Source of the DNA: a virus
Taxonomy: Duplodnaviria; Caudoviricetes
Length of the DNA: 33,474 nt
Virus record (IMG/VR): IMGVR_UViG_3300043447_000044
Span: 1-33,474 of that record
Strand: one strand, 5' to 3'
The first letter of the stretch is position 1. Each line of letters starts with the position of its first letter. The notes under the pieces are model-generated. The model did no database searches. It was given only the letters and a program-made list of their open reading frames with translations, and was not told the origin of the DNA. The translations under genes and the position numbers were made by a program. This document shows positions 3,524 to 17,392 of this stretch, one piece after another.

Positions 3524-3597
3524 TGGAGCGGGATGCGAGAATCGAACTCGCAACTCTAACTTGGAAGGATAGCATTTTACCACTAAACTAATCCCGC
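3524..3597 (-). tRNA. tRNA-Gly(TCC)
   Basis: cloverleaf, loop CTTCCAA, encoded CCA. Confidence 0.95.
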
Positions 3598-3603
3598 AAT
3601 ATT

Positions 3604-3680
3604 TGGCGAGCCGAGAGGGATTCGAACCCCCAACATATGGTTTTGGAGACCATCGTTCTGCCAATTGGAACTATCGACTC
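3604..3680 (-). tRNA. tRNA-Trp(CCA)
   Basis: cloverleaf, loop CTCCAAA, CCA end. Confidence 0.95.
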
Positions 3681-3841
3681 AATTGTGTCAAGACCTCTTG
3701 GGTCTCATCATTATTTCGAGTCAGCTTTTCTTCTGCCTCGCAATTCTGTTTCTTCTTGTTACCCCAGATAGCATCATATCCGTTGTCCCATTTATCTTTA
3801 TCTTCTGGACGACGTTTGTCGCCTTTACCACCATCACTCAT
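3671..3841 (-). CDS. small hypothetical phage protein (56 aa, MSDGGKGDKRRP...), below ORF-track cutoff
   Basis: GGAG SD; hand translation; stop overlaps the 5' end of tRNA-Trp. Confidence 0.65.
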   Translation of the reverse strand: MSDGGKGDKRRPEDKDKWDNGYDAIWGNKKKQNCEAEEKLTRNNDETQEVLTQLSR

Positions 3842-3843
3842 AG

Positions 3844-4458
3844 TTACTCCATAGAAATATAAAAATTTTGTACTATTCTAGTACTCTGTTTCTCTGACAT
3901 CTTAGATCTGTATTTGGTTCCAGCAGTCCAAGAAACCATTCTATTTTGTATATTCTTAGCTTCTGCTACTTCGTAGAAGTTTTTACTATACTCTATTAGT
4001 TGTTGTTGATCAAACGTATAACATTTATTCAGTGTCATATCAAATTCTGTTTCTTTATCCCAACCAGAAGACTTATGCGTATTATAGAATTTAATACCTG
4101 TATCTAAGTCTAGTGCTGGTGTAAGGTAAATTAAACCACAATGAATTAGTTTATAGTCTTTTATTGTTATATCACACACATTAGGATTTCTACCATCAAT
4201 ATGTATTAAACCAGCATTTCTTTCTGGATCGTAAGTATGTTTGGTGAAATAAGTTTCGACTTTAACCTTCGAACGATCAACACCATGCATATTGCAGATA
4301 GCATTAGAGAAGTTATCATATAAAGTTTTATCAATATTATATAACTGCGTGCTACGTAATCCAATACCACATCCACCGACATTACATTCTTCGTCAGATA
4401 ATGCTAGAACATATTCTATGTCAGTATAAAAATTATCTAATATTTTTATCATTATCAA
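3844..4458 (-). CDS. 2OG-Fe(II) oxygenase-like protein (possibly degenerate)
   Basis: ILDNFY...IHID...GLIYLTP...NRMV; distal His not evident. Confidence 0.55.
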   Translation of the reverse strand: MIMIKILDNFYTDIEYVLALSDEECNVGGCGIGLRSTQLYNIDKTLYDNFSNAICNMHGVDRSKVKVETYFTKHTYDPERNAGLIHIDGRNPNVCDITIKDYKLIHCGLIYLTPALDLDTGIKFYNTHKSSGWDKETEFDMTLNKCYTFDQQQLIEYSKNFYEVAEAKNIQNRMVSWTAGTKYRSKMSEKQSTRIVQNFYISME

Positions 4459-4900
4459 TAAACCTAAAAACAGTTGTTATTCTCTCACCACTAGTAACTT
4501 GATGTACTCCATGCTCATATATTTCAGTACCAACACCAGCTGGGAATATCAACAATGTATTTTTCTTAGGTTTCATAATGATATTCAACGTCGGTAGATA
4601 GAAATCTCCACCAGTATAATTATCACTACAGAATAAGATACCTGTTTTCTTCCACGCTTTCCATTCGTCTATTGGTCCAAAATCAACATGCTGTGGTGAG
4701 TAAGAACCTGTGGTGTAAATTAATGTTTCACTAAATGTTACATTACCAAAATCCTTAATCTGCTTGAATGGTAGTTTAGCGTGTTTTATTGTATTAACAT
4801 TGGGAGAATACTCAACAGCTTCTGCCTTAGATTTATCCAAGGAAACTAAAAAGTTATCTAACTCTTCCAGATCAAGATAGTCGGGGATTATAGTTATCAT
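4433..4900 (-). CDS. 2OG-Fe(II) oxygenase (prolyl-hydroxylase-like)
   Basis: HVD...YTGGDF...HGVHQVTSGERIT; start moved to MITII because the longer ORF overlaps a tRNA. Confidence 0.8.
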   Translation of the reverse strand: MITIIPDYLDLEELDNFLVSLDKSKAEAVEYSPNVNTIKHAKLPFKQIKDFGNVTFSETLIYTTGSYSPQHVDFGPIDEWKAWKKTGILFCSDNYTGGDFYLPTLNIIMKPKKNTLLIFPAGVGTEIYEHGVHQVTSGERITTVFRFIDNDKNIR

Positions 4901-4905
4901 AGTTT

Positions 4906-4981
4906 TGGTGCTGCTTGTCGGGTTCGAACTGACGACCTCATCATTACTAGTGATGTGCTCTACCAACTGAGCTAAAGCAGC
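4906..4981 (-). tRNA. tRNA-Thr(AGT)
   Basis: cloverleaf, CATCA-CTAGTAA-TGATG anticodon arm, CCA. Confidence 0.9.
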
Positions 4982-4987
4982 ATTTTA

Positions 4988-5593
4988 TTAAATTGGAATC
5001 CAGTGGTTAAGATCAAAACAATGCGGTAATTTGAACAATACATCTGCTGGAATAATATCAAACGCTATTGTTATTCTAGGTTTGTCTTCATTCCACTCAG
5101 AAGATCTATGTTCATCACCATCACTGGGGCTAATAACAAGCAGATTATCTTTGCTTGGTATTTCTATTTCTTGTTCATTCACTCTGTATGTAGTCTTAGA
5201 GTTTGGCTCAGTGTCTACACAATAAAATCCATGCCAAGTATCATACTTCTCTGGCCAATGACGGTGCCAATCAATAAACTCACCTCTACGATAAAAATTT
5301 AACCATGCCTGTGCATAGTATTTTCTATCATTGATACCATCTCTATGATATCTACATTGATGAAATGTTTCTTTGATGCTATTAAACAAGTCATGAGAAC
5401 CTGGAACTGCATACATAAAATAATTGTACTTAGTGTACAAATCATAGAGCATAGTAGATTGACCATTATGATCGTCTTCACTAAAACTTCTCTTAATGAA
5501 TTCATACATTATGTTAGCAGAATTTCTCTGCTGTTCTATGTTCAACTCAAGATTTCTTGTGTACACATATTCGTTGTGTAATTGCAGATCCAC
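4988..5593 (-). CDS. putative 2OG-Fe(II) oxygenase
   Basis: AWLN...DWHRH...HGFY...HRS...RITIAFD; GTG start with GGAG SD. Confidence 0.7.
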   Translation of the reverse strand: MDLQLHNEYVYTRNLELNIEQQRNSANIMYEFIKRSFSEDDHNGQSTMLYDLYTKYNYFMYAVPGSHDLFNSIKETFHQCRYHRDGINDRKYYAQAWLNFYRRGEFIDWHRHWPEKYDTWHGFYCVDTEPNSKTTYRVNEQEIEIPSKDNLLVISPSDGDEHRSSEWNEDKPRITIAFDIIPADVLFKLPHCFDLNHWIPI

Positions 5594-5609
5594 ATCTTCT
5601 CCATTATCT

Positions 5610-5685
5610 TGGCTCCCCTACGTGGGCTCGAACCACGGACATTTTGATTAACAGTCAAACGCTCTACCAACTGAGCTATAGGAGA
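5610..5685 (-). tRNA. tRNA-Asn(GTT)
   Basis: cloverleaf, loop CTGTTAA, CCA. Confidence 0.95.
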
Positions 5686-5692
5686 ATAAACT

Positions 5693-5776
5693 TGGTGCCC
5701 CCAGCGAGACTCGAACTCGCACGCCTCTCGGCACTGGCTTCTAAGACCAGCGTGTCTGCCATTCCACCACAGGGGC
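5693..5776 (-). tRNA. tRNA-Leu(TAG)
   Basis: loop CTTAGAA, long variable arm, CCA. Confidence 0.95.
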
Positions 5777-5794
5777 ATTCATTACTACTTATAT

Positions 5795-5871
<77 letters not shown>

Positions 5872-5877
5872 ATAAAT

Positions 5878-5952
5878 TGGTGCATCGTGACAGTTTCGAA
5901 CTGCCGACCCGCTGCGTGTAAGGCAGCCGCTCTACCACTGAGCTAACGATGC
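5878..5952 (-). tRNA. tRNA-Val(TAC)
   Basis: loop CTTACAC, CCA. Confidence 0.95.
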
Positions 5953-6007
5953 GAAATTAGTTACACACTACTTATCTTATTATACGCCATGTGTAAGGGC
6001 GAGGCTC

Positions 6008-6082
6008 TGGTGGTGATAGAGAGACTTGAACTCCCAACAATCACCGTATGAAGGTGGTGTTCTACCATTGAACTATATCACC
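6008..6082 (-). tRNA. tRNA-Met(CAT), probably elongator
   Basis: loop TTCATAC, CCA. Confidence 0.85.
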
Positions 6083-6182
6083 ATATTGAAACACACTTAT
6101 CGGAATTGAACCGATGACCAGAGTAAGACTCCAGCTATGCTCCACATAAACGCTTAGCCTCAGCGTCAGTATGCTTCAATAT
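6083..6182 (-). ncRNA. tRNA-like RNA with a 15-bp terminal stem and no canonical anticodon loop
   Basis: ATATTGAAGCATACT/AGTGTGTTTCAATAT stem; D-like arm; ATCGG-TTCAATT-CCGAT T-arm. Confidence 0.55.
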
Positions 6183-6256
6183 GGTGCCCCAGTACGGAAT
6201 TGAACCGCATTTTGATGCTTACAAGGCAACTGTAATAGCCATTATACTACAAGGGC
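6182..6256 (-). tRNA. tRNA-Thr(TGT)
   Basis: loop CTTGTAA, CCA. Confidence 0.9.
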
Positions 6257-6260
6257 AAAA

Positions 6261-6380
6261 TAACAGAATCGCTTTTTACGTGCTACCATTACACCACACA
6301 GAAGACCAACTCTGCGCTGGGATTCGAACCCAGACCCTCTTTTTTACAGAAAGATTATTTTAATTGCTGTAACGATTCTA
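6261..6380 (-). ncRNA. CAGCA-family RNA containing a circularly permuted tRNA-Tyr(GTA)-like domain (YrlA-like)
   Basis: order anticodon arm, T-arm, loop-closed acceptor stem, D-arm inside an AGAATCG/CGATTCT stem. Confidence 0.75.
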
Positions 6381-6391
6381 ATGGTCTTAAT

Positions 6392-6466
6392 TGGTTGCGG
6401 GTCGTGGTAACGCTCCACGCTCGAGATGGCTTATGAGACCATTCGGGTCAACTTGACCTACCCGCA
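6392..6466 (-). tRNA. tRNA-Met(CAT), initiator-like, atypical
   Basis: TGCGGGT/ACCCGCA-ACCA acceptor resembles fMet; loop CTCATAA; short D-arm; T-loop AGCGTTA. Confidence 0.7.
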
Positions 6467-6474
6467 ATAATAAA

Positions 6475-6668
6475 TTTGTAAGTTGTTCCACCACGTTATT
6501 GGAACCATTCACCCATCAGTTATGTGCACAGGGAGTCGGTACGCTACTTGGGATACTTGACAGATGCTTCTAGGTTTTGCTAGGGTATTGCGCCCCTCAT
6601 CTCTTTACACTGCATGGATCTTCGAAGAATCCTTAGCAGTGTGTCTTTCTCTTGCTAACACTTACAAA
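6475..6668 (-). ncRNA. unidentified structured RNA (~195 nt)
   Basis: TTTGTAAGT/ACTTACAAA closing stem with nested hairpins; fills a tRNA spacer. Confidence 0.5.
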
Positions 6669-6671
6669 ACT

Positions 6672-6746
6672 TGGCGGTCTCAGGGGGTAACGATCCCCCT
6701 CCTCAGCAGTGACAGTGCTGTGTGCGTCCATGAACACCTTGAGACC
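6672..6746 (-). tRNA. tRNA-Asp(GTC)
   Basis: loop CTGTCAC, CCA; T-loop ATCGTTA. Confidence 0.9.
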
Positions 6747-6872
6747 TGAATATGTGGCATTACGAACTTTAGCCGTATCTCTACGTGGATACCGAAAAGA
6801 ACAACTGGCGTTGCCCCGATTAACACGCCTGTCTCTAAAACAGGATTAACAAGCAGCTGACGCTGCCCGAAC

Positions 6873-6958
6873 TGGTGGAGATTCTTGGAATCGAACCAAG
6901 TGTGCCATAAGGCGACGGATTTACAGTCCGCTGCAGTCACCAATGCTGCTCAATCTCC
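6873..6958 (-). tRNA. tRNA-Tyr(GTA)
   Basis: loop CTGTAAA, long variable arm, CCA. Confidence 0.95.
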
Positions 6959-6964
6959 ATAATA

Positions 6965-7040
6965 TGGTACTCCGTGGGGGAATCGAACCCCTCCTTCCTG
7001 CCGTGAAAGGGCAGTGTCCTAGCCGATAGACGAACGGAGC
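6965..7040 (-). tRNA. tRNA-Glu(TTC)
   Basis: loop CTTTCAC, CCA. Confidence 0.95.
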
Positions 7041-7057
7041 ATTTCAAACTAAACATT

Positions 7058-7086
7058 ATTATACATCAACCTGCCCTGCAAGTCAA
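7058..7086 (-). promoter_or_regulatory. sigma70-type promoter internal to the tRNA array
   Basis: TTGACT-N17-TATAAT; spacer ends GTTGATG as in the promoters at 2661 and 2979. Confidence 0.85.
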
Positions 7087-7094
7087 CAACTAAC

Positions 7095-7172
7095 TGGAAT
7101 CTGGGGTGGGATTTGAACCCACGACTTTACGGATTTGCAATCCGTTCCAATTGACCACTCTGGCACCCAGAC
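7095..7172 (-). tRNA. tRNA-Cys(GCA)
   Basis: loop TTGCAAA, U73, CCA. Confidence 0.95.
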
Positions 7173-7179
7173 ATAAATT

Positions 7180-7254
7180 TGGTGGGCTGACTGAGAATTG
7201 AACTCAGACTCGATCGATTATGAGTCGACTGCTTTACCATTAAGCTATCAGCCC
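7180..7254 (-). tRNA. tRNA-Ile2(CAT, lysidine type)
   Basis: CGACTCATAATCG arm typical of Ile2; CCA. Confidence 0.85.
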
Positions 7255-7257
7255 GAA

Positions 7258-7334
7258 TGGTGCGCCCAGAGGGATTCGAACCCCCGACATGCGGTGTAGA
7301 AGACCGCTGTTCTATCCAGCTGAACTATAGGCGC
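7258..7334 (-). tRNA. tRNA-Arg(TCT)
   Basis: loop CTTCTAC, CCA. Confidence 0.95.
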
Positions 7335-7340
7335 ATAACT

Positions 7341-7424
7341 TGGTGCGAGAAGAGGGACTCGAACCCTCAAGCCTGACGGCGGCAGATTTTAAGTCTGCTG
7401 TGTATACCATTCCACCATTCTCGC
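7341..7424 (-). tRNA. tRNA-Leu(TAA)
   Basis: loop CTTAAAA, long variable arm, CCA. Confidence 0.95.
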
Positions 7425-7428
7425 AATT

Positions 7429-7517
7429 TGGCGGAGAGTGTGGGAATCGAACCCACGCACCGTATCACTACGATGACAGATTAGCAATCTGCTGCATTAC
7501 CATCCTGCCCACTCTCC
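7429..7517 (-). tRNA. tRNA-Ser(GCT)
   Basis: loop TTGCTAA, long variable arm, G73, CCA. Confidence 0.95.
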
Positions 7518-7519
7518 AT

Positions 7520-7648
7520 TTATCTTATACGTCTTATCAGTCTCAACCAATAATACTTCAATCCACGAATCGGGATGTCAAACGCAAAGCCCACTTCTTT
7601 AGGAATGGAGCCATACGCTTTGTTCAATGTGTCTTCTGCTTTTGGCAT
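7520..7648 (-). CDS. small hypothetical protein (42 aa, MPKAEDTLNK...LRLIRRIR)
   Basis: AGGAG SD; hand translation; fills the gap exactly. Confidence 0.55.
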   Translation of the reverse strand: MPKAEDTLNKAYGSIPKEVGFAFDIPIRGLKYYWLRLIRRIR

Positions 7649-7663
7649 TCCATTCTCCTAATG

Positions 7664-8221
7664 TTAGTGATTACCTTTTGTCTTGAAGCCCACGATACCA
7701 CCTTCGTCATTGATTCGTTGAATCACGTCTTCAAACAAGATGGGTCTGAAGTCTGTTTGTTCGACGCAGACGCAGTGGTATCGTGGATCAACTTTCGTTC
7801 CTTGCATCACTCGGTTGCTGTGAGTATGTCCATGGATGTTAGTGCCAAAACGCTCTAACTGACTTTCGTGCACAGGGATGTGACTTAAAATCATTCCATT
7901 CATCACATGGTATCCACGAATGTCTCTGAAGAACGGAGTGTATTCTTCCATTCTAAAGATGTCATGGTTACCTTTGATTAAGACTTTATCACCATTTAAG
8001 CGATGCATAATCTTTAATGCTTTGCGGTTGATAACGACATCGCCTAAGTGATAAACTTTATCAGTTGGCTTTACTGTTTCGTTCCAACGCTTTACCATTT
8101 CTTCGTCCATTTCTTCTGGACTGTCCCATGGTCTTAACTTCGTAACACCATCGGCTTGCATGAACTTACATACGCCTAAGTGTCCGAAGTGCGTATCACT
8201 TGTTAAAAATACACTTGGCAT
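7664..8221 (-). CDS. calcineurin-like metallophosphoesterase
   Basis: SDTHFGH, HLGD, GNHD, HGHTH; GGAG SD before MPSVF. Confidence 0.9.
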   Translation of the reverse strand: MPSVFLTSDTHFGHLGVCKFMQADGVTKLRPWDSPEEMDEEMVKRWNETVKPTDKVYHLGDVVINRKALKIMHRLNGDKVLIKGNHDIFRMEEYTPFFRDIRGYHVMNGMILSHIPVHESQLERFGTNIHGHTHSNRVMQGTKVDPRYHCVCVEQTDFRPILFEDVIQRINDEGGIVGFKTKGNH

Positions 8222-8243
8222 AATATACTCCATTTAGGTTAAA

Positions 8244-8302
8244 CAACAGGATCCTTATTTTTCAATTACAAGTTGAATTTTTTTGATTGCTGGACGGATC
8301 CT
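8244..8302 (-). ncRNA. CAGCA-family mini-RNA with a Thr(TGT) anticodon stem-loop
   Basis: AGGATCC-GTC-CAGCAA...TTCAA-CTTGTAA-TTGAA...GGATCCT-GTTG. Confidence 0.7.
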
Positions 8303-8307
8303 AAAAG

Positions 8308-8399
8308 TGGCGGAAAGCAGAGGAGTCGAACCCCATCCCATTTCTGAGAACCGAGTTTTCAAGGCTCGTCGCCGCACCAACGCAGCTGCATTACTTTCC
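8308..8399 (-). tRNA. tRNA-Ser(TGA), non-canonical 8/4 fold
   Basis: 8-bp acceptor GGAAAGTA/TGCTTTCC, 4-bp T-stem, loop CTTGAAA, long variable arm, G73-CCA. Confidence 0.8.
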
Positions 8400-8404
8400 A
8401 TAAT

Positions 8405-8494
8405 TGGCGGAGATAGTAGGATTTGAACCCACGAACCCTTTCGGGTTGCTTGTTTTCTAGACAAGTGCCATAAACCAGACTCGACCATATCTCC
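8405..8494 (-). tRNA. tRNA-Ser(AGA)
   Basis: CTTGT-CTAGAAA-ACAAG arm, long variable arm, G73-CCA. Confidence 0.9.
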
Positions 8495-8499
8495 ATAAA

Positions 8500-8556
8500 C
8501 AACAGGATTCGCTTTTTCTTTATTCCAAAAAGATTTTTATTTGCTGAATGAATCCT
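8500..8556 (-). ncRNA. CAGCA-family mini-RNA with a Ser(GGA)-like anticodon stem-loop
   Basis: AGGATTC-ATT-CAGCAA...TCTTT-TTGGAAT-AAAGA...GAATCCT-GTTG. Confidence 0.65.
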
Positions 8557-8562
8557 AAAAAC

Positions 8563-8636
8563 TGGTGCGGGCAGAGAGAATCGAACTCTCAACTAATGCT
8601 TGGCAAGCACTGATTTTACCATTAAACTATGCACGC
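8563..8636 (-). tRNA. tRNA-Gly(GCC)
   Basis: loop TTGCCAA, CCA; discriminator A rather than U. Confidence 0.9.
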
Positions 8637-8642
8637 AAAACT

Positions 8643-8717
8643 TGGTACCTCGTGATGGAATCAAACCACCGTCTCAGCGTTCGTAGCACCGTATACTATT
8701 CATTGTACTAACGAGGC
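8643..8717 (-). tRNA. tRNA-Arg(ACG)
   Basis: loop CTACGAA, CCA. Confidence 0.9.
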
Positions 8718-8720
8718 ATA

Positions 8721-8864
8721 AATTAGTGCACATCGATCAATTGGGACTCTTACCCCAGCATTTCTCAACTTGTGCAACCAAGCTGACGCAGTATACACTG
8801 CAAAGACGACCGAGATGGCGAGATCGTCTACTGTTTACTTTTCGGTTAATTACGCCGACTAATT
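8721..8864 (-). ncRNA. unidentified multi-stem structured RNA (~145 nt)
   Basis: AATTAGT/ACTAATT closing stem; AGACGATC/GGTCGTCT, GCAGT/ACTGC and TGCACA/TGTGCA stems. Confidence 0.45.
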
Positions 8865-8866
8865 CT

Positions 8867-8942
8867 TGGTCTCCGTAGAAGGATTCGAACCTTCACCCCA
8901 CCGCCCCAAACGGCGAGTGCAACCTGATAACACTTTACAGAG
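8867..8942 (-). tRNA. tRNA-Pro(TGG), second divergent copy
   Basis: loop TTTGGGG, CCA. Confidence 0.9.
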
Positions 8943-8948
8943 ATAACT

Positions 8949-9023
8949 TGGTACTGCGTATGGGTAACGATCCCATCTAGTCACCTTGAAAGGGTGATGA
9001 CCTCACCTGAAGTCGAACGCAGT
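8949..9023 (-). tRNA. tRNA-Glu(TTC), second divergent copy
   Basis: loop CTTTCAA, T-loop ATCGTTA, CCA. Confidence 0.85.
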
Positions 9024-9029
9024 GTAATT

Positions 9030-9104
9030 TGGTGGAGACCGAGGAAATCGAATCCTTCTAGACATCCTCCTTGCAAGGGAGAACCGTAGCCCACTACTGT
9101 CCCC
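9030..9104 (-). tRNA. tRNA-Ala(TGC), shortened D-arm
   Basis: G3:U70, loop CTTGCAA, CCA. Confidence 0.85.
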
Positions 9105-9189
9105 AAATTAGGGTTAGTTTCTATATCACCCATTGAAACTAACAAACATTGAGAAAACTATGTAACTAGCACATAGCCACTATTTGCTC

Positions 9190-9268
9190 TGGCTCCGAGT
9201 ATGAGAATCGAACTCATCTAACCATTGATTAACAGTCAAGCCCATGCACCTTGCTCGGGTTTCTCGGA
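9190..9268 (-). tRNA. tRNA-Asn(GTT), second divergent copy
   Basis: loop CTGTTAA, G73-CCA. Confidence 0.9.
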
Positions 9269-9275
9269 ATAAAAA

Positions 9276-9345
9276 CAACAGGATGATTTTGACGAACATG
9301 TCAAATTAAAAGTTTGGTGTTCTTGTTAATTGCAGAACTCATCCT
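9276..9345 (-). ncRNA. CAGCA-family mini-RNA with a Lys(TTT) anticodon stem-loop
   Basis: AGGATGA-GTT-CTGCAA...CAAA-CTTTTAA-TTTG...TCATCCT-GTTG. Confidence 0.65.
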
Positions 9346-9350
9346 AAAAC

Positions 9351-9425
9351 TGGTACCCGATAGTGGTAACGATCCACTCGCCTATCGCTTATCAAGCGAT
9401 TGCTCTACCTCTGAGCTAATCGGGT
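9351..9425 (-). tRNA. tRNA-Ile(GAT)
   Basis: loop TTGATAA, T-loop ATCGTTA, CCA. Confidence 0.9.
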
Positions 9426-9434
9426 ATATTCTTC

Positions 9435-9510
9435 TGGTGCCGATACCAAGAGTCGAACTTGGGACACATAGATTTTCAGTCTACTGCTCTACCACCTGAG
9501 CTATATCGGC
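9435..9510 (-). tRNA. tRNA-Phe(GAA)
   Basis: loop CTGAAAA, CCA. Confidence 0.95.
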
Positions 9511-9520
9511 AAAAATTCTT

Positions 9521-9595
9521 TGGGGTGTCTAATGAGGATCGAACTCATGCGAACAGAATCACAATCTGTGATGCTACCATTACATCATAGACACC
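9521..9595 (-). tRNA. tRNA-His(GTG)
   Basis: loop TTGTGAT, G-1:C73, CCA. Confidence 0.95.
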
Positions 9596-9607
9596 CTAAA
9601 GAACTCT

Positions 9608-9682
9608 TGGTAGGGGCACAGAGAATCGAACTCTGATTACATGGTTAAAAGCCACGTACTTTAGCCGTTAAGTTATACCCCC
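9608..9682 (-). tRNA. tRNA-Lys(TTT)
   Basis: loop CTTTTAA, CCA. Confidence 0.9.
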
Positions 9683-9686
9683 ATAT

Positions 9687-9762
9687 TGGTCCACTCGGTG
9701 AGATTCGAACTCACACCTCATTGATTAAGAGTCAAGTGCGCTACCGTTAACGCTACAAGTGG
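9687..9762 (-). tRNA. tRNA-Lys(CTT)
   Basis: loop CTCTTAA, CCA. Confidence 0.9.
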
Positions 9763-9824
9763 GTTGTCGTAATTATTTTGATTTTACGTGCCAACCCAAG
9801 ACCAATACGGGATCTTGAGTGACA

Positions 9825-9845
9825 CTAGCGTTTGCCTCGTTTCAT
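9825..9845 (-). other. minigene MKRGKR* with strong SD, followed by a hairpin
   Basis: AAGGAGAGTAGC-ATG AAA CGA GGC AAA CGC TAG. Confidence 0.45.
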
Positions 9846-9933
9846 GCTACTCTCCTTAAAATTAAACTAACCAAATAAAAACATACTACTCATCTGCTTT
9901 CGCAATTTGATTGTTCGGCAGTATATTTTTATT

Positions 9934-10007
9934 TGGCACCCGAGGTAGGAATCGAACCTACAATAACAGAGTCAAAGTCTGGTGTGTTACCACTACACTA
10001 CTCGGGA
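9934..10007 (-). tRNA. tRNA-Gln(TTG)
   Basis: loop CTTTGAC, G73-CCA. Confidence 0.9.
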
Positions 10008-10061
10008 ACAATGAGACATCAGCATCAGCGAACCAACACTGATGTCTCGTAAAAACTGGCG

Positions 10062-10103
10062 CAGATTGTTAAAGATCATTTCAGTAAGTCTTTCGACTAA
10101 CTA
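10062..10103 (-). promoter_or_regulatory. rrn-like boxB/boxA antitermination leader
   Basis: AGTC-GAAA-GACT hairpin followed by TGATCTTTAACAATCTG. Confidence 0.7.
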
Positions 10104-10112
10104 AGGGATTGA

Positions 10113-10141
10113 ATTCTACAGTAAGTTTACTATAAAGTCAA
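10113..10141 (-). promoter_or_regulatory. sigma70-type promoter, proximal to the tRNA array
   Basis: TTGACT-N17-TAGAAT. Confidence 0.8.
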
Positions 10142-10177
10142 CACCTTCAAAAATAACCCTACAAGATTGTAGAGTAT

Positions 10178-10217
10178 AAAACAAAAAACCCTCTGGACTT
10201 TCATCTCAGAGGGTTTT
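10178..10217 (-). terminator. intrinsic terminator (attenuator terminator)
   Basis: AAAACCCTCTG...CAGAGGGTTTTTTGTTTT. Confidence 0.85.
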
Positions 10218-10240
10218 GGTAAAGAGACCTAATCGTCGTC

Positions 10241-10366
10241 TTACATCTTCTTACCAAAACCCCCAGTATCCTCAATCGCATAGCCTACAAATGATGGGCG
10301 TGTGCTTGTCCATCCGTTATTCAACGGTAGCTGTTTATGCATTCTGGAACAAACTATTTTTAACAT
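10241..10366 (-). CDS. leaderless 41-aa candidate leader peptide containing all 20 amino acids
   Basis: MLKIVCSRMHKQLPLNNGWTSTRPSFVGYAIEDTGGFGKKM*; ATG 7 nt after the -10 box; 3' end forms an antiterminator strand. Confidence 0.75.
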   Translation of the reverse strand: MLKIVCSRMHKQLPLNNGWTSTRPSFVGYAIEDTGGFGKKM

Positions 10367-10372
10367 GATTGA

Positions 10373-10401
10373 ATTCTACTATACCTTTTGATTAAAGTCA
10401 A
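10373..10401 (-). promoter_or_regulatory. sigma70-type promoter for the leader ORF
   Basis: TTGACT-N17-TAGAAT. Confidence 0.8.
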
Positions 10402-10454
10402 GTGTAAAACCCTACACCCTGTAAGGTTTTTTACTCTCGATCTATTTAGACATT

Positions 10455-10483
10455 ATTTTAGCTCAAAGAGCCATTAAAGTCAA
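10455..10483 (-). promoter_or_regulatory. sigma70-type promoter (upstream tandem)
   Basis: TTGACT-N17-TAAAAT. Confidence 0.65.
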
Positions 10484-10495
10484 GTTTTTTGAAAT

Positions 10496-11056
10496 TTATT
10501 TTATCAGCTGTGCTACACAGTCTGGGACAACTGGGACATCCATTCTTTCTGGATGCCACACGACACCGTAGATTGGAAGATGTTCGTGTCTGAATGCCTC
10601 AACAGTTTGATCTGCTTCGTGCATTGCAATTGGAATCATACCCTTGCCAAGTTTTCTTATTGTCTGTCCATGATAGCTATTGACAATAACTTTCTTGCCA
10701 TCCATTACAACTTCATGATCTGTATCATCGTGTAATGGAATCCTTGTTGGATCGATATCATTGACACCACCAGTTAGATCATTGATTGCGAAAGCACCAT
10801 GACAAACACCAAGAATAGGTTTTCTATTTTTGATTGCATGGTAGAACAGAGTGTTCTCTGTATGGTTTCTCGCAAGCGAATCAGATCCACCTGAAAGAAC
10901 TAGACAGTCATACTCAGTATCAGGAACAATACCAATGTTCGCCACTGGAATGAGATGATGACTGCTTAGAAAGGAGTACCAACTTCTCTCCAAGCAGTCA
11001 TACAAGAAATTACTAGGAGGGATCCGAAAATCCCTCTGTGAAATCAAAATTCTCAT
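10496..11056 (-). CDS. class I glutamine amidotransferase / peptidase C26 family
   Basis: LSGG, PILGVCHG (nucleophile Cys), NSYH, WHPE; start moved to MRILISQ. Confidence 0.85.
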   Translation of the reverse strand: MRILISQRDFRIPPSNFLYDCLERSWYSFLSSHHLIPVANIGIVPDTEYDCLVLSGGSDSLARNHTENTLFYHAIKNRKPILGVCHGAFAINDLTGGVNDIDPTRIPLHDDTDHEVVMDGKKVIVNSYHGQTIRKLGKGMIPIAMHEADQTVEAFRHEHLPIYGVVWHPERMDVPVVPDCVAQLIK

Positions 11057-11936: not shown

Positions 11937-12893
11937 TCACTTTTGGTTATTTTTAGATAAAACTGTGTCTACAAGAGGTTGCCACTGCTTTTCACGTGTT
12001 TTCAACCACAATTTCATGGCTTCTGGGTTTTGTAGAACCTTGTTTTGAATCAACAAGTTGTCATAGAAGATAGCCTTAACTTCGTCAGAATTCAAAGCCT
12101 TAGTGAACTCCTTAGTGTACCACTCGACTACATCTTTCGGTGTGCCAGCTGGAAGCATTAAAGCCCACATTCCAGACACATTGAAGTTAGGGATAGCCGT
12201 ATCCATAGTTTGGGCTTCTGGGATCTGAGCTAATGGTGTAATACCACTCAACGCCACAACTTGCAATCGACCATCTCTGTAGAATGGATTAGCCACTGCA
12301 GATGGAACGATAGCGAATCGCACATGCCCACCAGCTACATCATTCAGTGCATCGTTTGGACCTTTGTGGTCTACACGAACAACATCAGAGAACTGAACTC
12401 TTGCAGCAATAGATTCATAGACCAGTCGTGCACCACCGCTTGCAGCAATAGTTATCTTCTCGGTCTTAAGAGCCTGAACCAATTGTTTTGGAGTTTTTAC
12501 TGGATCGCCAGACTTAGCCACGACAACAAATGGGCTAGTAGCAATATGAGTTGGATAGACAAAACTATCAACATTGTATGAACGACCATCACCTTGAACA
12601 GAAACTTTATCCATAGCTGCAATCCCTGGAACAGAGACGTTAGTTACAGAGTAGCCATCAGCTGGACGCTTACTCAATTCTTCAGTACCAATAACACCAC
12701 CAGCACCTGGACGGTTAATGATAACAAATTTTGCACCAGTGTTTTGTTCAACTTGTTTAGCTAGGACACGGAATGAGATTTCATTCACACTTCCAGGTGT
12801 CCATGCCATAATCGCTTCAATCGGTTTCGTCGGTTGCCACGCAAATGCAGAAACAGACATCACCATCAACAAACTAATTACGAGTTTTTTCAT
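11937..12893 (-). CDS. Bug/TctC tripartite tricarboxylate transporter substrate-binding protein
   Basis: signal peptide; WQPTKPI...NRPGAGGVIG...PADGY...PAGTP. Confidence 0.9.
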   Translation of the reverse strand: MKKLVISLLMVMSVSAFAWQPTKPIEAIMAWTPGSVNEISFRVLAKQVEQNTGAKFVIINRPGAGGVIGTEELSKRPADGYSVTNVSVPGIAAMDKVSVQGDGRSYNVDSFVYPTHIATSPFVVVAKSGDPVKTPKQLVQALKTEKITIAASGGARLVYESIAARVQFSDVVRVDHKGPNDALNDVAGGHVRFAIVPSAVANPFYRDGRLQVVALSGITPLAQIPEAQTMDTAIPNFNVSGMWALMLPAGTPKDVVEWYTKEFTKALNSDEVKAIFYDNLLIQNKVLQNPEAMKLWLKTREKQWQPLVDTVLSKNNQK

Positions 12894-13776: not shown

Positions 13777-14751
13777 TCAATTCGGCTTGGGTAGGCTTTT
13801 CACATATGGTAACCACTGTTTTTGTAGTTCTACCATATCTTTACGAACACCCTTTGGACCGACAGATTTGGGGTCTAGGAAGATGTAGTTCTCTTCCATA
13901 AACTTCTTATACTCAGCCGTTTTTATGGCTGCTACGAAATTCTTCTCGTACCACTTAGCGATCTCTGGTGGGGTATTCGGAGGCAGAGCCACATTCCAGC
14001 ATCCATATACATTTAGACCAGCAACAGAGTCTCTCATTAATGGTACTTCAGCAGGGATACCAGCGAGTTTAGTTTCACCTGCTACACCGATTAACTTAAC
14101 CTTGCCTGTAGAGACAAGTGTGTTTGCGATAGCGATAGGCATAACTCCAAACTCAGTGCCAGTCTTACCATCATATTGGGCTACACTTGTAACAGCTGGG
14201 ACTGGACCTTTGAAAATGATTGGTTGAACCTTCTCTTTGTTACCATTAACATTCTGCATAAAATATTCATATGCTAGGTAATGAGCAGAACCACCAACAG
14301 CAAAGTTGATCTCACGACCAGATGTAACTTCTTTAACAAGTTCAGGAATGCTATTCACGTTGCTCTTAGAACTGGCAACAAAAGCCATTGGGCTTTTGCC
14401 GATGTTAGTGATCAATGTTAAGTCGAGTGGGCTACGTGTGATCAGGTTAGAGAAATGTGCTTCTGAAAATAAGAATCCACTAACGCAAGATGGGATACCA
14501 ACAGTATAACCATCTGGTGGTGATTCTAGTAACTGCTTCAGCATAATATTACCATCAGCGCCAGCTTTATTAAACAGAGCGAAGGTAGCCTTACCTTTAC
14601 TCTCGATATGAGAAGTAATCAATCGAGCAGTCACTTCACCACCTGAGCCAGCACTTGTTGGCAACAATACTGTAATTGGTTTTTTAGGATCTGGTTGCCA
14701 TGCAAAAGCAAGAGCAGGCACCATTATCAATGCTAATAATAATTTCTTCAT
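13777..14751 (-). CDS. Bug/TctC substrate-binding protein
   Basis: signal peptide; KPITV...NKAGADGNI...PPDGYT...PPNTP. Confidence 0.85.
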   Translation of the reverse strand: MKKLLLALIMVPALAFAWQPDPKKPITVLLPTSAGSGGEVTARLITSHIESKGKATFALFNKAGADGNIMLKQLLESPPDGYTVGIPSCVSGFLFSEAHFSNLITRSPLDLTLITNIGKSPMAFVASSKSNVNSIPELVKEVTSGREINFAVGGSAHYLAYEYFMQNVNGNKEKVQPIIFKGPVPAVTSVAQYDGKTGTEFGVMPIAIANTLVSTGKVKLIGVAGETKLAGIPAEVPLMRDSVAGLNVYGCWNVALPPNTPPEIAKWYEKNFVAAIKTAEYKKFMEENYIFLDPKSVGPKGVRKDMVELQKQWLPYVKSLPKPN

Positions 14752-16166: not shown

Positions 16167-16520
16167 TTATCCTATCAAATGTTGCGCCAGTACCATACAA
16201 GAGATCCAGACCCAAAGAGTGTTAAACGCAACCAGTGTTGGGAGTAATTTCTTATTGCTCGCCCAGATCAGTGTGACGCTGGTTGCAAGAGTGAAGAAGT
16301 ATAACCACCAGATCTGAATCCCGAAAATAAGACCTGGAACAATGATGAATGCCTTAGCTGCCCAACTAGCAAACTCTACAGTGTTGTAGTCAGTCCAGTA
16401 CTCTTTAGTGAACCACATCTTATAACAATCAACAATCTTGCGCCAGTTACTATGAGTATATGTAACACCTATTAGTATTGCCCAAACTGCTGTTGCTGCT
16501 AAGATCTGTTCTAGTGTCAT
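16167..16520 (-). CDS. small multi-pass membrane protein
   Basis: several Trp-rich hydrophobic segments. Confidence 0.7.
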   Translation of the reverse strand: MTLEQILAATAVWAILIGVTYTHSNWRKIVDCYKMWFTKEYWTDYNTVEFASWAAKAFIIVPGLIFGIQIWWLYFFTLATSVTLIWASNKKLLPTLVAFNTLWVWISCMVLAQHLIG

Positions 16521-17392
16521 TTAGCTTCCTGAATTTGTGATTTATATTTCTTCTGAAACTTTCTAACAGTGGCTAAAGAATTTGTATAAAATTGTTCTGC
16601 TGACTCAGAAGGAATTTTCATGCCAGAAATTTTCAGAATTTCGTCACTACCAATCTTGTTCTGAGCATCATTCAAAATAATAGCAATAGCCTTGCGGCGT
16701 GTCTCATCCATAGATTTTGGTGCAACAGTGATGTTGAATACATATGGGGCATCAACACCAAGTTCTTTCAAAGTCTTTAGCTTAGGCACAGATGGGATTC
16801 TGACAGGACAAGAAGCAGCGAATAGTTGTAACTTAGGGTTTTTATCCTTTAGAGATTCATATAACTCATAGCGATCAATACCTAAAGTCACACCATGGTT
16901 GCCAGCCATATTCATGAAGGCGTCATTGTTTGACTTAAAACCGATGTACTTAACATCTAGTTTGTACTTGTCAGCAATAGACAATGCAGTTAGATGGGTA
17001 GCGTTACCGAAACCTACTGTACCAACAACCATTTCTTTGTTAGCATTAACTGCTCCATTTGTAACAACTACCCAGCATGCGTTACCCAATGCGTGGATAG
17101 GCACATAGTCAGCCTCAACAACCTTACCTGAATTGATGTTGTCTACGAACGCTGCTGCGATAATACCGAGACTATTTGAGTCCATGGCTTTCAGTGCGAT
17201 TAGCTGATTACCTCCAGGTCTAAATTCAAGAACGAATGTATAGATATGTTGAGCCTTGTTAGCCTCTTCAATAATCTTGTACATTGCAGTAGTGCCAGAG
17301 TGTGAAGCACTATAAGGTGACATGATCTTAATTGTTTCAGTAGCAAATGCTGAACTACACAGCATCATTAACATAGCTAGAATTTTTTTCAT
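16517..17392 (-). CDS. divergent Bug/TctC substrate-binding protein
   Basis: signal peptide; PYSA...RPGGNQLIA...THL...KTLKELG. Confidence 0.75.
   Translation of the reverse strand: MKKILAMLMMLCSSAFATETIKIMSPYSASHSGTTAMYKIIEEANKAQHIYTFVLEFRPGGNQLIALKAMDSNSLGIIAAAFVDNINSGKVVEADYVPIHALGNACWVVVTNGAVNANKEMVVGTVGFGNATHLTALSIADKYKLDVKYIGFKSNNDAFMNMAGNHGVTLGIDRYELYESLKDKNPKLQLFAASCPVRIPSVPKLKTLKELGVDAPYVFNITVAPKSMDETRRKAIAIILNDAQNKIGSDEILKISGMKIPSESAEQFYTNSLATVRKFQKKYKSQIQEAK

Follow-up and report, generated by a model that had tools for sequence, protein, structure and literature searches.

The attenuators of trp, his, leu, thr, ilvGMEDA, ilvBN as well as pheA combine a short leader ORF, an antiterminator that overlaps the 3' part of this ORF and a competing intrinsic terminator of similar stability; a stalled ribosome leads to read-through, and the synonymous codons are biased (PMC1183508). 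One uORF can also report stalls at many positions, as described for toiL of E. coli (PMC12121999), and in the mycobacterial polycysteine sORF attenuators a leaderless short ORF acts as sensor of ribosome stalling (10.1101/834739). The trn operon of Anabaena is a large tRNA array that is normally silent and is induced by translational stress (PMC10272220). In phages, tRNAs counter anticodon nucleases, and T6 escapes Septu via a higher dose of tRNA-Tyr (PMC10264068, PMC13096335); why phages have such arrays is a question of more than 50 years' standing (PMC10264068). A general translation-stress uORF, in which stalls at many positions are reported by one reading frame, is reportedly known from mycobacterial whiB7.

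The window analysed here, a stretch of 33,474 nucleotides of viral DNA, carries a leader ORF followed by a terminator and a tRNA array, which an earlier note had interpreted as a candidate attenuator sensing all tRNAs. In our assessment the leader is probably a ribosome-coupled attenuator that reports tRNA supply over nearly the whole genetic code, and it is very likely that the switch is coupled to the ribosome at all. The same cassette was recovered by three differently biased searches (structure-, ORF- and terminator-selected), and the case rests on the homologues, whose sequences point to a real, conserved regulatory cassette upstream of the phage tRNA array.

Organization of the leader region and the tRNA array

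The window is a contig of 33.5 kb with genes for a T4-type RNase H, NrdB, 2OG-Fe(II) oxygenases and TctC-family proteins. The RNase H shows 40-45% identity to that of T4-like phages of Synechococcus, Pelagibacter and Methylophilales; its best match (44.5%) is in ON615601, for which tRNA annotation was absent in the 30 kb inspected. The window is from an uncultured T4-like phage, and relatives occur on viral contigs, the longest of which reach 160-170 kb. Three genes for TctC-family solute-binding proteins lie upstream of the array (11937-12893, 13777-14751 and 16517-17392, minus strand); the one of these that was checked had no match among cultured phages.

All features described in this section lie on the minus strand. 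The tRNA array (3524..10007) is interrupted by protein genes and begins with tRNA-Gln(TTG). It had been described as a 32-tRNA array; the array is present, but the number 32 is reached only at a relaxed threshold, as ARAGORN finds 29 genes by default, 31 at -ps95 (where all 20 amino acids are covered) and 32 at -ps90. Low-scoring or odd tRNAs are located at 8308-8494, 6090-6174 and 4906-4981, where -ps90 yields Ser(AGA), Thr(AGT) and Ser(TGA), and -ps85 yields Ser(GGA); Thr(AGT) was seen again in 14 of 16 related arrays. Inside the array lies a promoter-like site (7058..7086), and from an ATG 2 bases past its -10 element (7056 onward) runs a 39-codon frame with 19 residues that crosses tRNA-Glu and is probably incidental. 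More strong TTGAC(T/A)-N-TA(T/G)AAT sites occur at 2689, 3007, 7086, 15356, 21031, 21918 and 23916, every one on the minus strand.

The leader promoter, TTGACT-17-TAGAAT (10373..10401), is followed by the ATG at 10366, which sits six bases past the -10 hexamer, at the expected +1, and is the predicted transcription start. The ORF, predicted to be leaderless, comprises 41 codons and a TAA (10241..10366), of which codons 1-33 form the sensing window. The earlier description of the promoter and the ATG that follows it was confirmed, as was the translation: all 20 amino acids have appeared once codon 33 is reached, the 41 codons are of 34 kinds, and the spread over isoacceptors is as listed. It is also true that every anticodon of the array has a readable codon, but this is mostly a consequence of wobble plus 20 residues; AAG, the match to tRNA-Lys(CTT), is present only as codons 39 and 40, past the switch point. 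The initiator Met is counted among the 20, and this copy also has Met9. The final new amino acid, Asp33 (10268..10270), is located at the predicted switch point.

Within the window, none of 7287 33-codon windows from 35 ORFs contains 20 residues. Among 7007 41-codon windows of these ORFs, the comparison that the earlier note had proposed, 43 contain 20 residues and none reaches 34 distinct codons. The simulated probability of finding all 20 is 0.001 for 33 codons and 0.011 for 41, and among 92 short ATG ORFs of the window the leader alone has 20 residues and three have 19. Given this chance per ORF and the number of short ORFs, the composition of a single locus is modest evidence, suggestive and not decisive.

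The antiterminator consists of a 5' strand within codons 35-39 (10250..10264) and a 3' strand (10209..10223), the last 9 nt of which form the base of the 5' arm of the intrinsic terminator. The two strands form 15 pairs, 2 of them G-U (-29.3 kcal/mol, z -6.0). The terminator with its U6-G-U4 tract spans 10178..10217, and its hairpin (10217-10185) folds at -18.9 kcal/mol (z -5.2). According to the earlier note the two structures exclude each other; the pairing of about 15 bp does include the 5' arm of the terminator, but the overlap is partial, since only 9 nucleotides (10217-10209) are contested and the rest coexists at full length, where the averaged equilibrium of antiterminator and terminator in folding is about 50:50. 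The U6-G-U4 tail (10178-10188) is common to 73 of 93 relatives, and the TTNTTT within it corresponds to the NusG pause motif of Bacillus (PMC12288461), which may or may not matter in this host. Directly before tRNA-Gln lies a 16-bp hairpin (10013..10048; -22.6 kcal/mol, z -5.6). No Rfam cis-regulator, T-box included, was detected, with matches at gathering score for tRNA only and no model near threshold within 10010-10500.

Between terminator and array, a downstream promoter-like site (10113..10141) could bypass the switch. The caveat that such a promoter exists holds for this copy, in which it would give basal array expression, so that the switch would boost rather than gate, but not for the family: a site is present in 37 of 77 relatives and absent between terminator and first tRNA in 40, with the tRNA within 60 nt in 38 of these. 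In these 40, access to the head of the array would depend on the switch alone. A boxA-like element (10067..10077) has one mismatch to GYTCTTTAANA, the boxA consensus (PMC5725501). Among 70 distinct spacers 41 have an exact match and 28 one mismatch (69/70, compared to 1.3 in shuffles), and the element is predicted to serve in Nus antitermination over the untranslated array.

Upstream of the leader promoter we find a further sigma70-type promoter-like site, TTGACT-17-TAAAAT (10455..10483). Immediately upstream of the leader promoter an 11-bp hairpin (10406..10430; -11.1 kcal/mol, z -3.0) may shield the leader from upstream transcripts. It is akin to a short palindrome in the interval between terminator and downstream promoter (10157..10174), of which a like motif occurs in 23 of 93 homologues; each lies directly upstream of a promoter, that of the leader or the downstream one, and they are possible operators or processing sites. 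Between the two upstream promoters, at 10443-10450, there is a one-mismatch copy of TATAAATA, which we take to be the T4 late promoter motif. In 21 of 75 relatives, exact copies precede the switch by 100-300 nt.

Relatives of the leader and their amino acid composition

The structure-selected search of viral contigs, with the antiterminator and terminator core fixed, gave at least 119 loci, which were pooled with 12 earlier ones and the window; among the matches listed, 102 were unique and 77 family-like, and the other 25 were unrelated and without a downstream tRNA. With only ORF codons fixed, 110 loci were obtained, 91 of them unique and 67 in frame with a near stop; the 24 others and one unrelated match among the 67 (L208) were dropped, none of which had a downstream tRNA. 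With only the terminator fixed, 91 loci were found, 69 of them unique including the window. All 69 have the leader and the antiterminator duplex (mean -18.2 vs -8.7 kcal/mol when shuffled), with 20 residues in 44 and 19 in 25. Pooling yielded 111 elements and 93 distinct sensing windows of 29-39 codons. L120, the frame of which is broken, and L150 and L186, which are truncated by contig ends, were dropped. The homologues represent one related group of uncultured phages, and each search fixed some bases; in the structure-selected set, pairwise peptide identity has a mean of 57% and a minimum of 28%.

No carrier was found among cultured phages: the best 30 of 579 records in a blastn search with 9600-10600 match tRNA parts only, and tblastn with the leader peptide gave only matches with E>=2. 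Prokaryote genomes contain two pattern matches, one unrelated and one family member, the latter (L243) on a contig of 2,154 bases from a Saccharibacteria bin that is probably mis-binned phage DNA. Of 24 RNA runs, each contained at most 15% of the sampled words, and 8 were examined as assembled contigs. Several of these cover leaders of relatives; one (X5) stops at the U tract, where no loose end was listed, and three (X2, X3 and X6) continue past it.

The setting is shared among the relatives. In 93 homologues the leader starts 6-7 nt past the -10 element in 67 cases and 10 nt past it in 14, is preceded by a Shine-Dalgarno sequence in 10 and is unclear in 2. The first gene downstream of the switch is a tRNA in all 77 relatives in view (Gln in 76), and of 16 arrays that look complete, 15 have tRNAs for all 20 amino acids.

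The 93 distinct sensing windows contain 20 residues in 62 cases, 19 in 30 and 18 in 1, and 17 of 21 representatives at under 60% identity have all 20. When each alignment column is resampled on its own, 20 residues are reached in 6-8%, a null that misalignment may somewhat lower, compared to 33/42, 24/30 and 15/18 observed. Residues that occur as single copies move. Cys is found N-terminally only in 36 windows, in the middle only in 51, at both places in 1 and at neither in 5. Parsimony on two trees gives more changes of location than of presence for His, Phe and Tyr (10-15, 7 and 8-14 changes of location, each with 0 of presence), Gln (18-25 against 1) and Cys (15-19 against 5). Between nearest neighbours, 189 of 219 changes at single-copy sites are compensated by the same residue elsewhere (53.6 expected), although 30 of the 189 are shifts of the Asp column that are probably alignment artefacts and have to be discounted. 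Gly, Phe and Lys, which the antiterminator itself encodes, are also present upstream of it in 75 of 75.

Not every residue is held equally. Val is present in 69 of the 93 windows and absent from 24, with 15 presence changes on the tree; an internal Met occurs in 72, all 18 other residues in 85 and, without counting the start codon, all 20 in 47. Sensing, as judged from these sequences, would be firm for 18 residues and loose for Val and elongator Met, which corrects the earlier proposal that the loss of any tRNA is sensed. Arrays without tRNA-Val do not explain the Val-less leaders, as 5 of 16 complete arrays encode tRNA-Val behind a Val-less leader. Composition, antiterminator pairing and polarity are all kept among the homologous leaders, and in this comparison the earlier proposal held up.

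Codon choice was assessed in 44 representative leaders. Compared to phage genes these favour TTT (1.00 vs 0.47), GAG (0.83 vs 0.29), CAG (0.80 vs 0.34), GAT, CAT and TAT (0.93-0.95 vs 0.52-0.61), GCG (0.56 vs 0.06) and ATA (0.46 vs 0.13), and within four-codon boxes they avoid the codons that end in U; Phe is TTT throughout its eight alignment columns. By standard decoding rules the favoured codons would largely be wobble-read or single-tRNA codons, in agreement with the rule that attenuators rely on whichever synonym is most sensitive to starvation (PMC1183508). Part of this bias may stem from common ancestry and from local RNA structure. Separate isoacceptor boxes are sampled by most of 65 leaders: Ile by ATA in 56 and ATY in 65, Arg by AGR in 57 and CGY in 63, Ser by AGY in 62 and TCR in 65, and Leu by TTR in 65 and CTR in 51.

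The predicted switch and the readings it allows

In the covariation alignment the antiterminator is 92.6% paired with 19 two-sided cells and the terminator 97.9% with 42, values matched by none of 500 shuffles. The search had fixed the core of this alignment; the ORF-selected set is free of that bias and has core changes in which two pairs are altered on both sides (L171) or one base is deleted per strand (the L134 and L142 groups). The peptide end encoded by the antiterminator strand of ORF-selected relatives changes from GFGK to GLDKK, GLAST or GSVK with the pairing kept, and in 4 of the 93 the strand is read in another frame. GFGK was therefore rejected as a peptide motif; to judge from these sequences it is the RNA pairing, and not the encoded peptide, that is preserved. 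In L143 and L170, a frame shift ahead of the antiterminator leaves a leader without Asp and the strand in another frame, with the pairing mostly kept. L135 and L010 have an A+T-rich insertion or an open frame between terminator and array, and a degraded U tract.

The geometry of leader and switch is conserved. In 86 of 93, 5 nt separate the end of the final new residue from the G whose partner is the third C of the terminator, and this residue lies at offset -3 in 64 of 65, also when Asp has left that place (L077, L117). The folding model, an equilibrium model without co-transcriptional kinetics, uses a single ribosome mask to +12 (an assumed footprint). Applied to 65 homologues, it gives, in the pre-terminator transcript, an antiterminator probability of ~1.0 as long as the A site has come no further than offset -4, a borderline or mixed state at -3 (Asp) and a terminator probability of 1.0 from -2. 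As the last new residue lies at -3, where the model flips to termination, the pangram of the leader appears to end where the ribosome can no longer report. In the pre-terminator transcript without a ribosome the antiterminator probability is 1.0, and the predicted default of an untranslated leader is read-through, unlike in trp. The polarity proposed in the earlier note, in which complete translation leads to a stop and a stall to read-through, agrees with the folding model and with the homologues. Because the stop codon is located 23-33 nt before the terminator stem in 93 of 93, a terminating ribosome would not block the stem.

A small hairpin over codons 13-19 (10310..10330, minus strand) is a candidate RNA polymerase pause hairpin. 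It covaries, with pairing over the LP..GW codons in 63/66 and 54/66, compared to 56 and 45 in shuffles, and RNAalifold detects no consensus structure on the leader ORF. A nearly invariant C|G step (10300/10299) lies 10 nt past the hairpin; we do not claim it as a consensus elemental pause, its G pair being one base further upstream than in that consensus. The spacing fits that of pause hairpins, 10-13 nt from the RNA end (PMC12288461).

In the proposed mechanism, host RNA polymerase would start at the ATG and a ribosome would load on the leaderless RNA, as the conserved spacing suggests; the polymerase may wait at the candidate pause hairpin. A ribosome that has passed codon 33 would hide the 5' strand of the antiterminator, the terminator would form and transcription would stop. 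If the ribosome stalls at any codon up to 33, or does not initiate, the folding model predicts that the antiterminator takes the basal pairs of the terminator and the polymerase reads through, after which boxA may recruit host Nus factors for passage through the untranslated array. A toy race with a polymerase at 50 nt/s and a ribosome at 15 codons/s, and with assumed initiation and dwell times, gives a basal read-through of 27-62% without a pause; a pause lowers 0.27 to 0.02-0.08. A stall of 2 s at codon 26 leads to ~0.55 read-through, and a 1.5-2-fold global slowdown (0.30-0.92) outweighs a single stall of 0.5 s. At one or two codons for each tRNA, a response would be expected to stalls that last seconds (from tRNA cleavage or a severe drop in charging) or to a 1.5-2-fold general slowdown, and not to mild shortage of a single amino acid.

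What the switch reports can be understood in more than one way. It is possible, though we hold this more tentatively than sensing of tRNA supply as such, that the leader is a universal alarm against tRNA-cleaving host immunity, a test message of 33 codons that samples each tRNA species open to cutting by a defence nuclease and on which any stall yields a full set of replacement tRNAs. In the Elf-Ehrenberg model one regulatory codon among many means low sensitivity, which counts against pan-codon sensing (PMC1183508). The switch could instead be ribosome-coupled and read host amino-acid starvation or general translation speed, as set by nutrient state or by stress that targets ribosomes, with its output tuned to host physiology and not to tRNA loss. 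The presence of each amino acid is the best conserved property of the leader, the toy race answers a general slowdown more than a short single stall, the untranslated default in folding is read-through and translation antibiotics induce the trn array of Anabaena (PMC10272220), all as expected from this explanation. Amino-acid sensing has, however, no need of the separate isoacceptor boxes of Ile, Arg, Ser and Leu that most leaders sample, a pure speed sensor has no need to relocate single-copy residues, and extra tRNA would not cure a lack of amino acids. We consider a switch of this kind unlikely as an alternative to tRNA sensing, with which it overlaps and shares the mechanism.

Explanations in which the ribosome does not report at all fare worse. 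If the ORF encoded a functional small protein or an arrest peptide, with the terminator ending its mRNA and the array on its own promoter, one would expect the pN/pS of 0.39-0.48, below 0.5, the near-invariant residues M, LP, W, R, AIE and D and the downstream promoter found here and in 37/77 relatives. It would be difficult to reconcile with the relocation of Cys, His, Gln, Phe and Tyr as single copies or with a C-terminal peptide that changes or shifts frame with RNA pairing kept, and in the 40/77 without a downstream promoter the head of the array would stay silent if the stop were constitutive; among 37 members no NCBIfam family was matched, and the one Pfam match had an E of 0.09. We consider a small protein very improbable. 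Slightly less credit still is due to a terminator and antiterminator controlled by a protein or an RNA, with the ORF incidental or merely a timer that positions the ribosome. In favour of this, the synonymous sites of the ORF are constrained too, with some codons fixed at the nucleotide level, and the late-type motif TATAAATA upstream of the switch in relatives suggests timing control. Such control would not require the ATG-started frame that is intact in 76 of 77 structure-selected relatives and varies in length by whole codons, nor a composition exceeding the profile null, and the Rfam search, T-box included, identified no family. An attenuator that reports tRNA supply remains our preferred reading.

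Comparison with known systems

By analogy with the phage tRNAs that act against anticodon nucleases, counter-defence is a likely reason to sense tRNA loss. The leader would encode what the phage monitors, and the purpose of the array would show in what opens the switch, be it cleavage by nucleases, starvation or a general slowdown. Should the alarm reading be true, phage tRNA arrays would be inducible counter-defence, not constitutive cargo. The supply of tRNA acting on tRNA transcription would form a feedback loop, and the cassette of 190 nt could find use as a transferable reporter of defence systems that act on tRNA. Among the matches listed in searches of mainly open-access main texts, we found no account of a leader-peptide attenuator for tRNA genes.

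The systems nearest in function or layout differ from the phage leader in distinct ways. Counter-defence by tRNA relies on gene amplification or resistant anticodon loops, and the available text of these studies describes no inducible leader (PMC10264068, PMC13096335). In the trn operon of Anabaena the ribbon-helix-helix repressor TrcR acts at the promoter, and the word attenuation is absent from that account (PMC10272220). The polycysteine sORFs sense a single amino acid and act on translation of the next gene (10.1101/834739), and toiL works through occlusion of a ribosome-binding site and Rho, and senses antibiotics (PMC12121999). For neither the toiL nor the whiB7 uORF is selection to contain all amino acids, or control of tRNA genes, described. 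The boxA/Nus account, like our locus, places GYTCTTTAANA ahead of an untranslated RNA operon, without mention of tRNA (PMC5725501); here boxA sits behind an attenuator in a phage tRNA array.

The architecture of the phage leader is closest to that of the trp and his type, from which we keep it apart because it has no repeated cognate codons, biosynthetic target or I:II protector hairpin. Those leaders repeat codons for one to three amino acids and control amino-acid biosynthetic genes (PMC1183508), whereas the phage leader has one or two codons each for 19-20 amino acids, is phage-borne and mostly leaderless in its start, and targets a tRNA array. Without the I:II protector no superattenuation is predicted. 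If our reading is correct, the logic of attenuation would reach beyond a single amino acid to almost the entire code, and beyond enzymes to the machinery of decoding itself.
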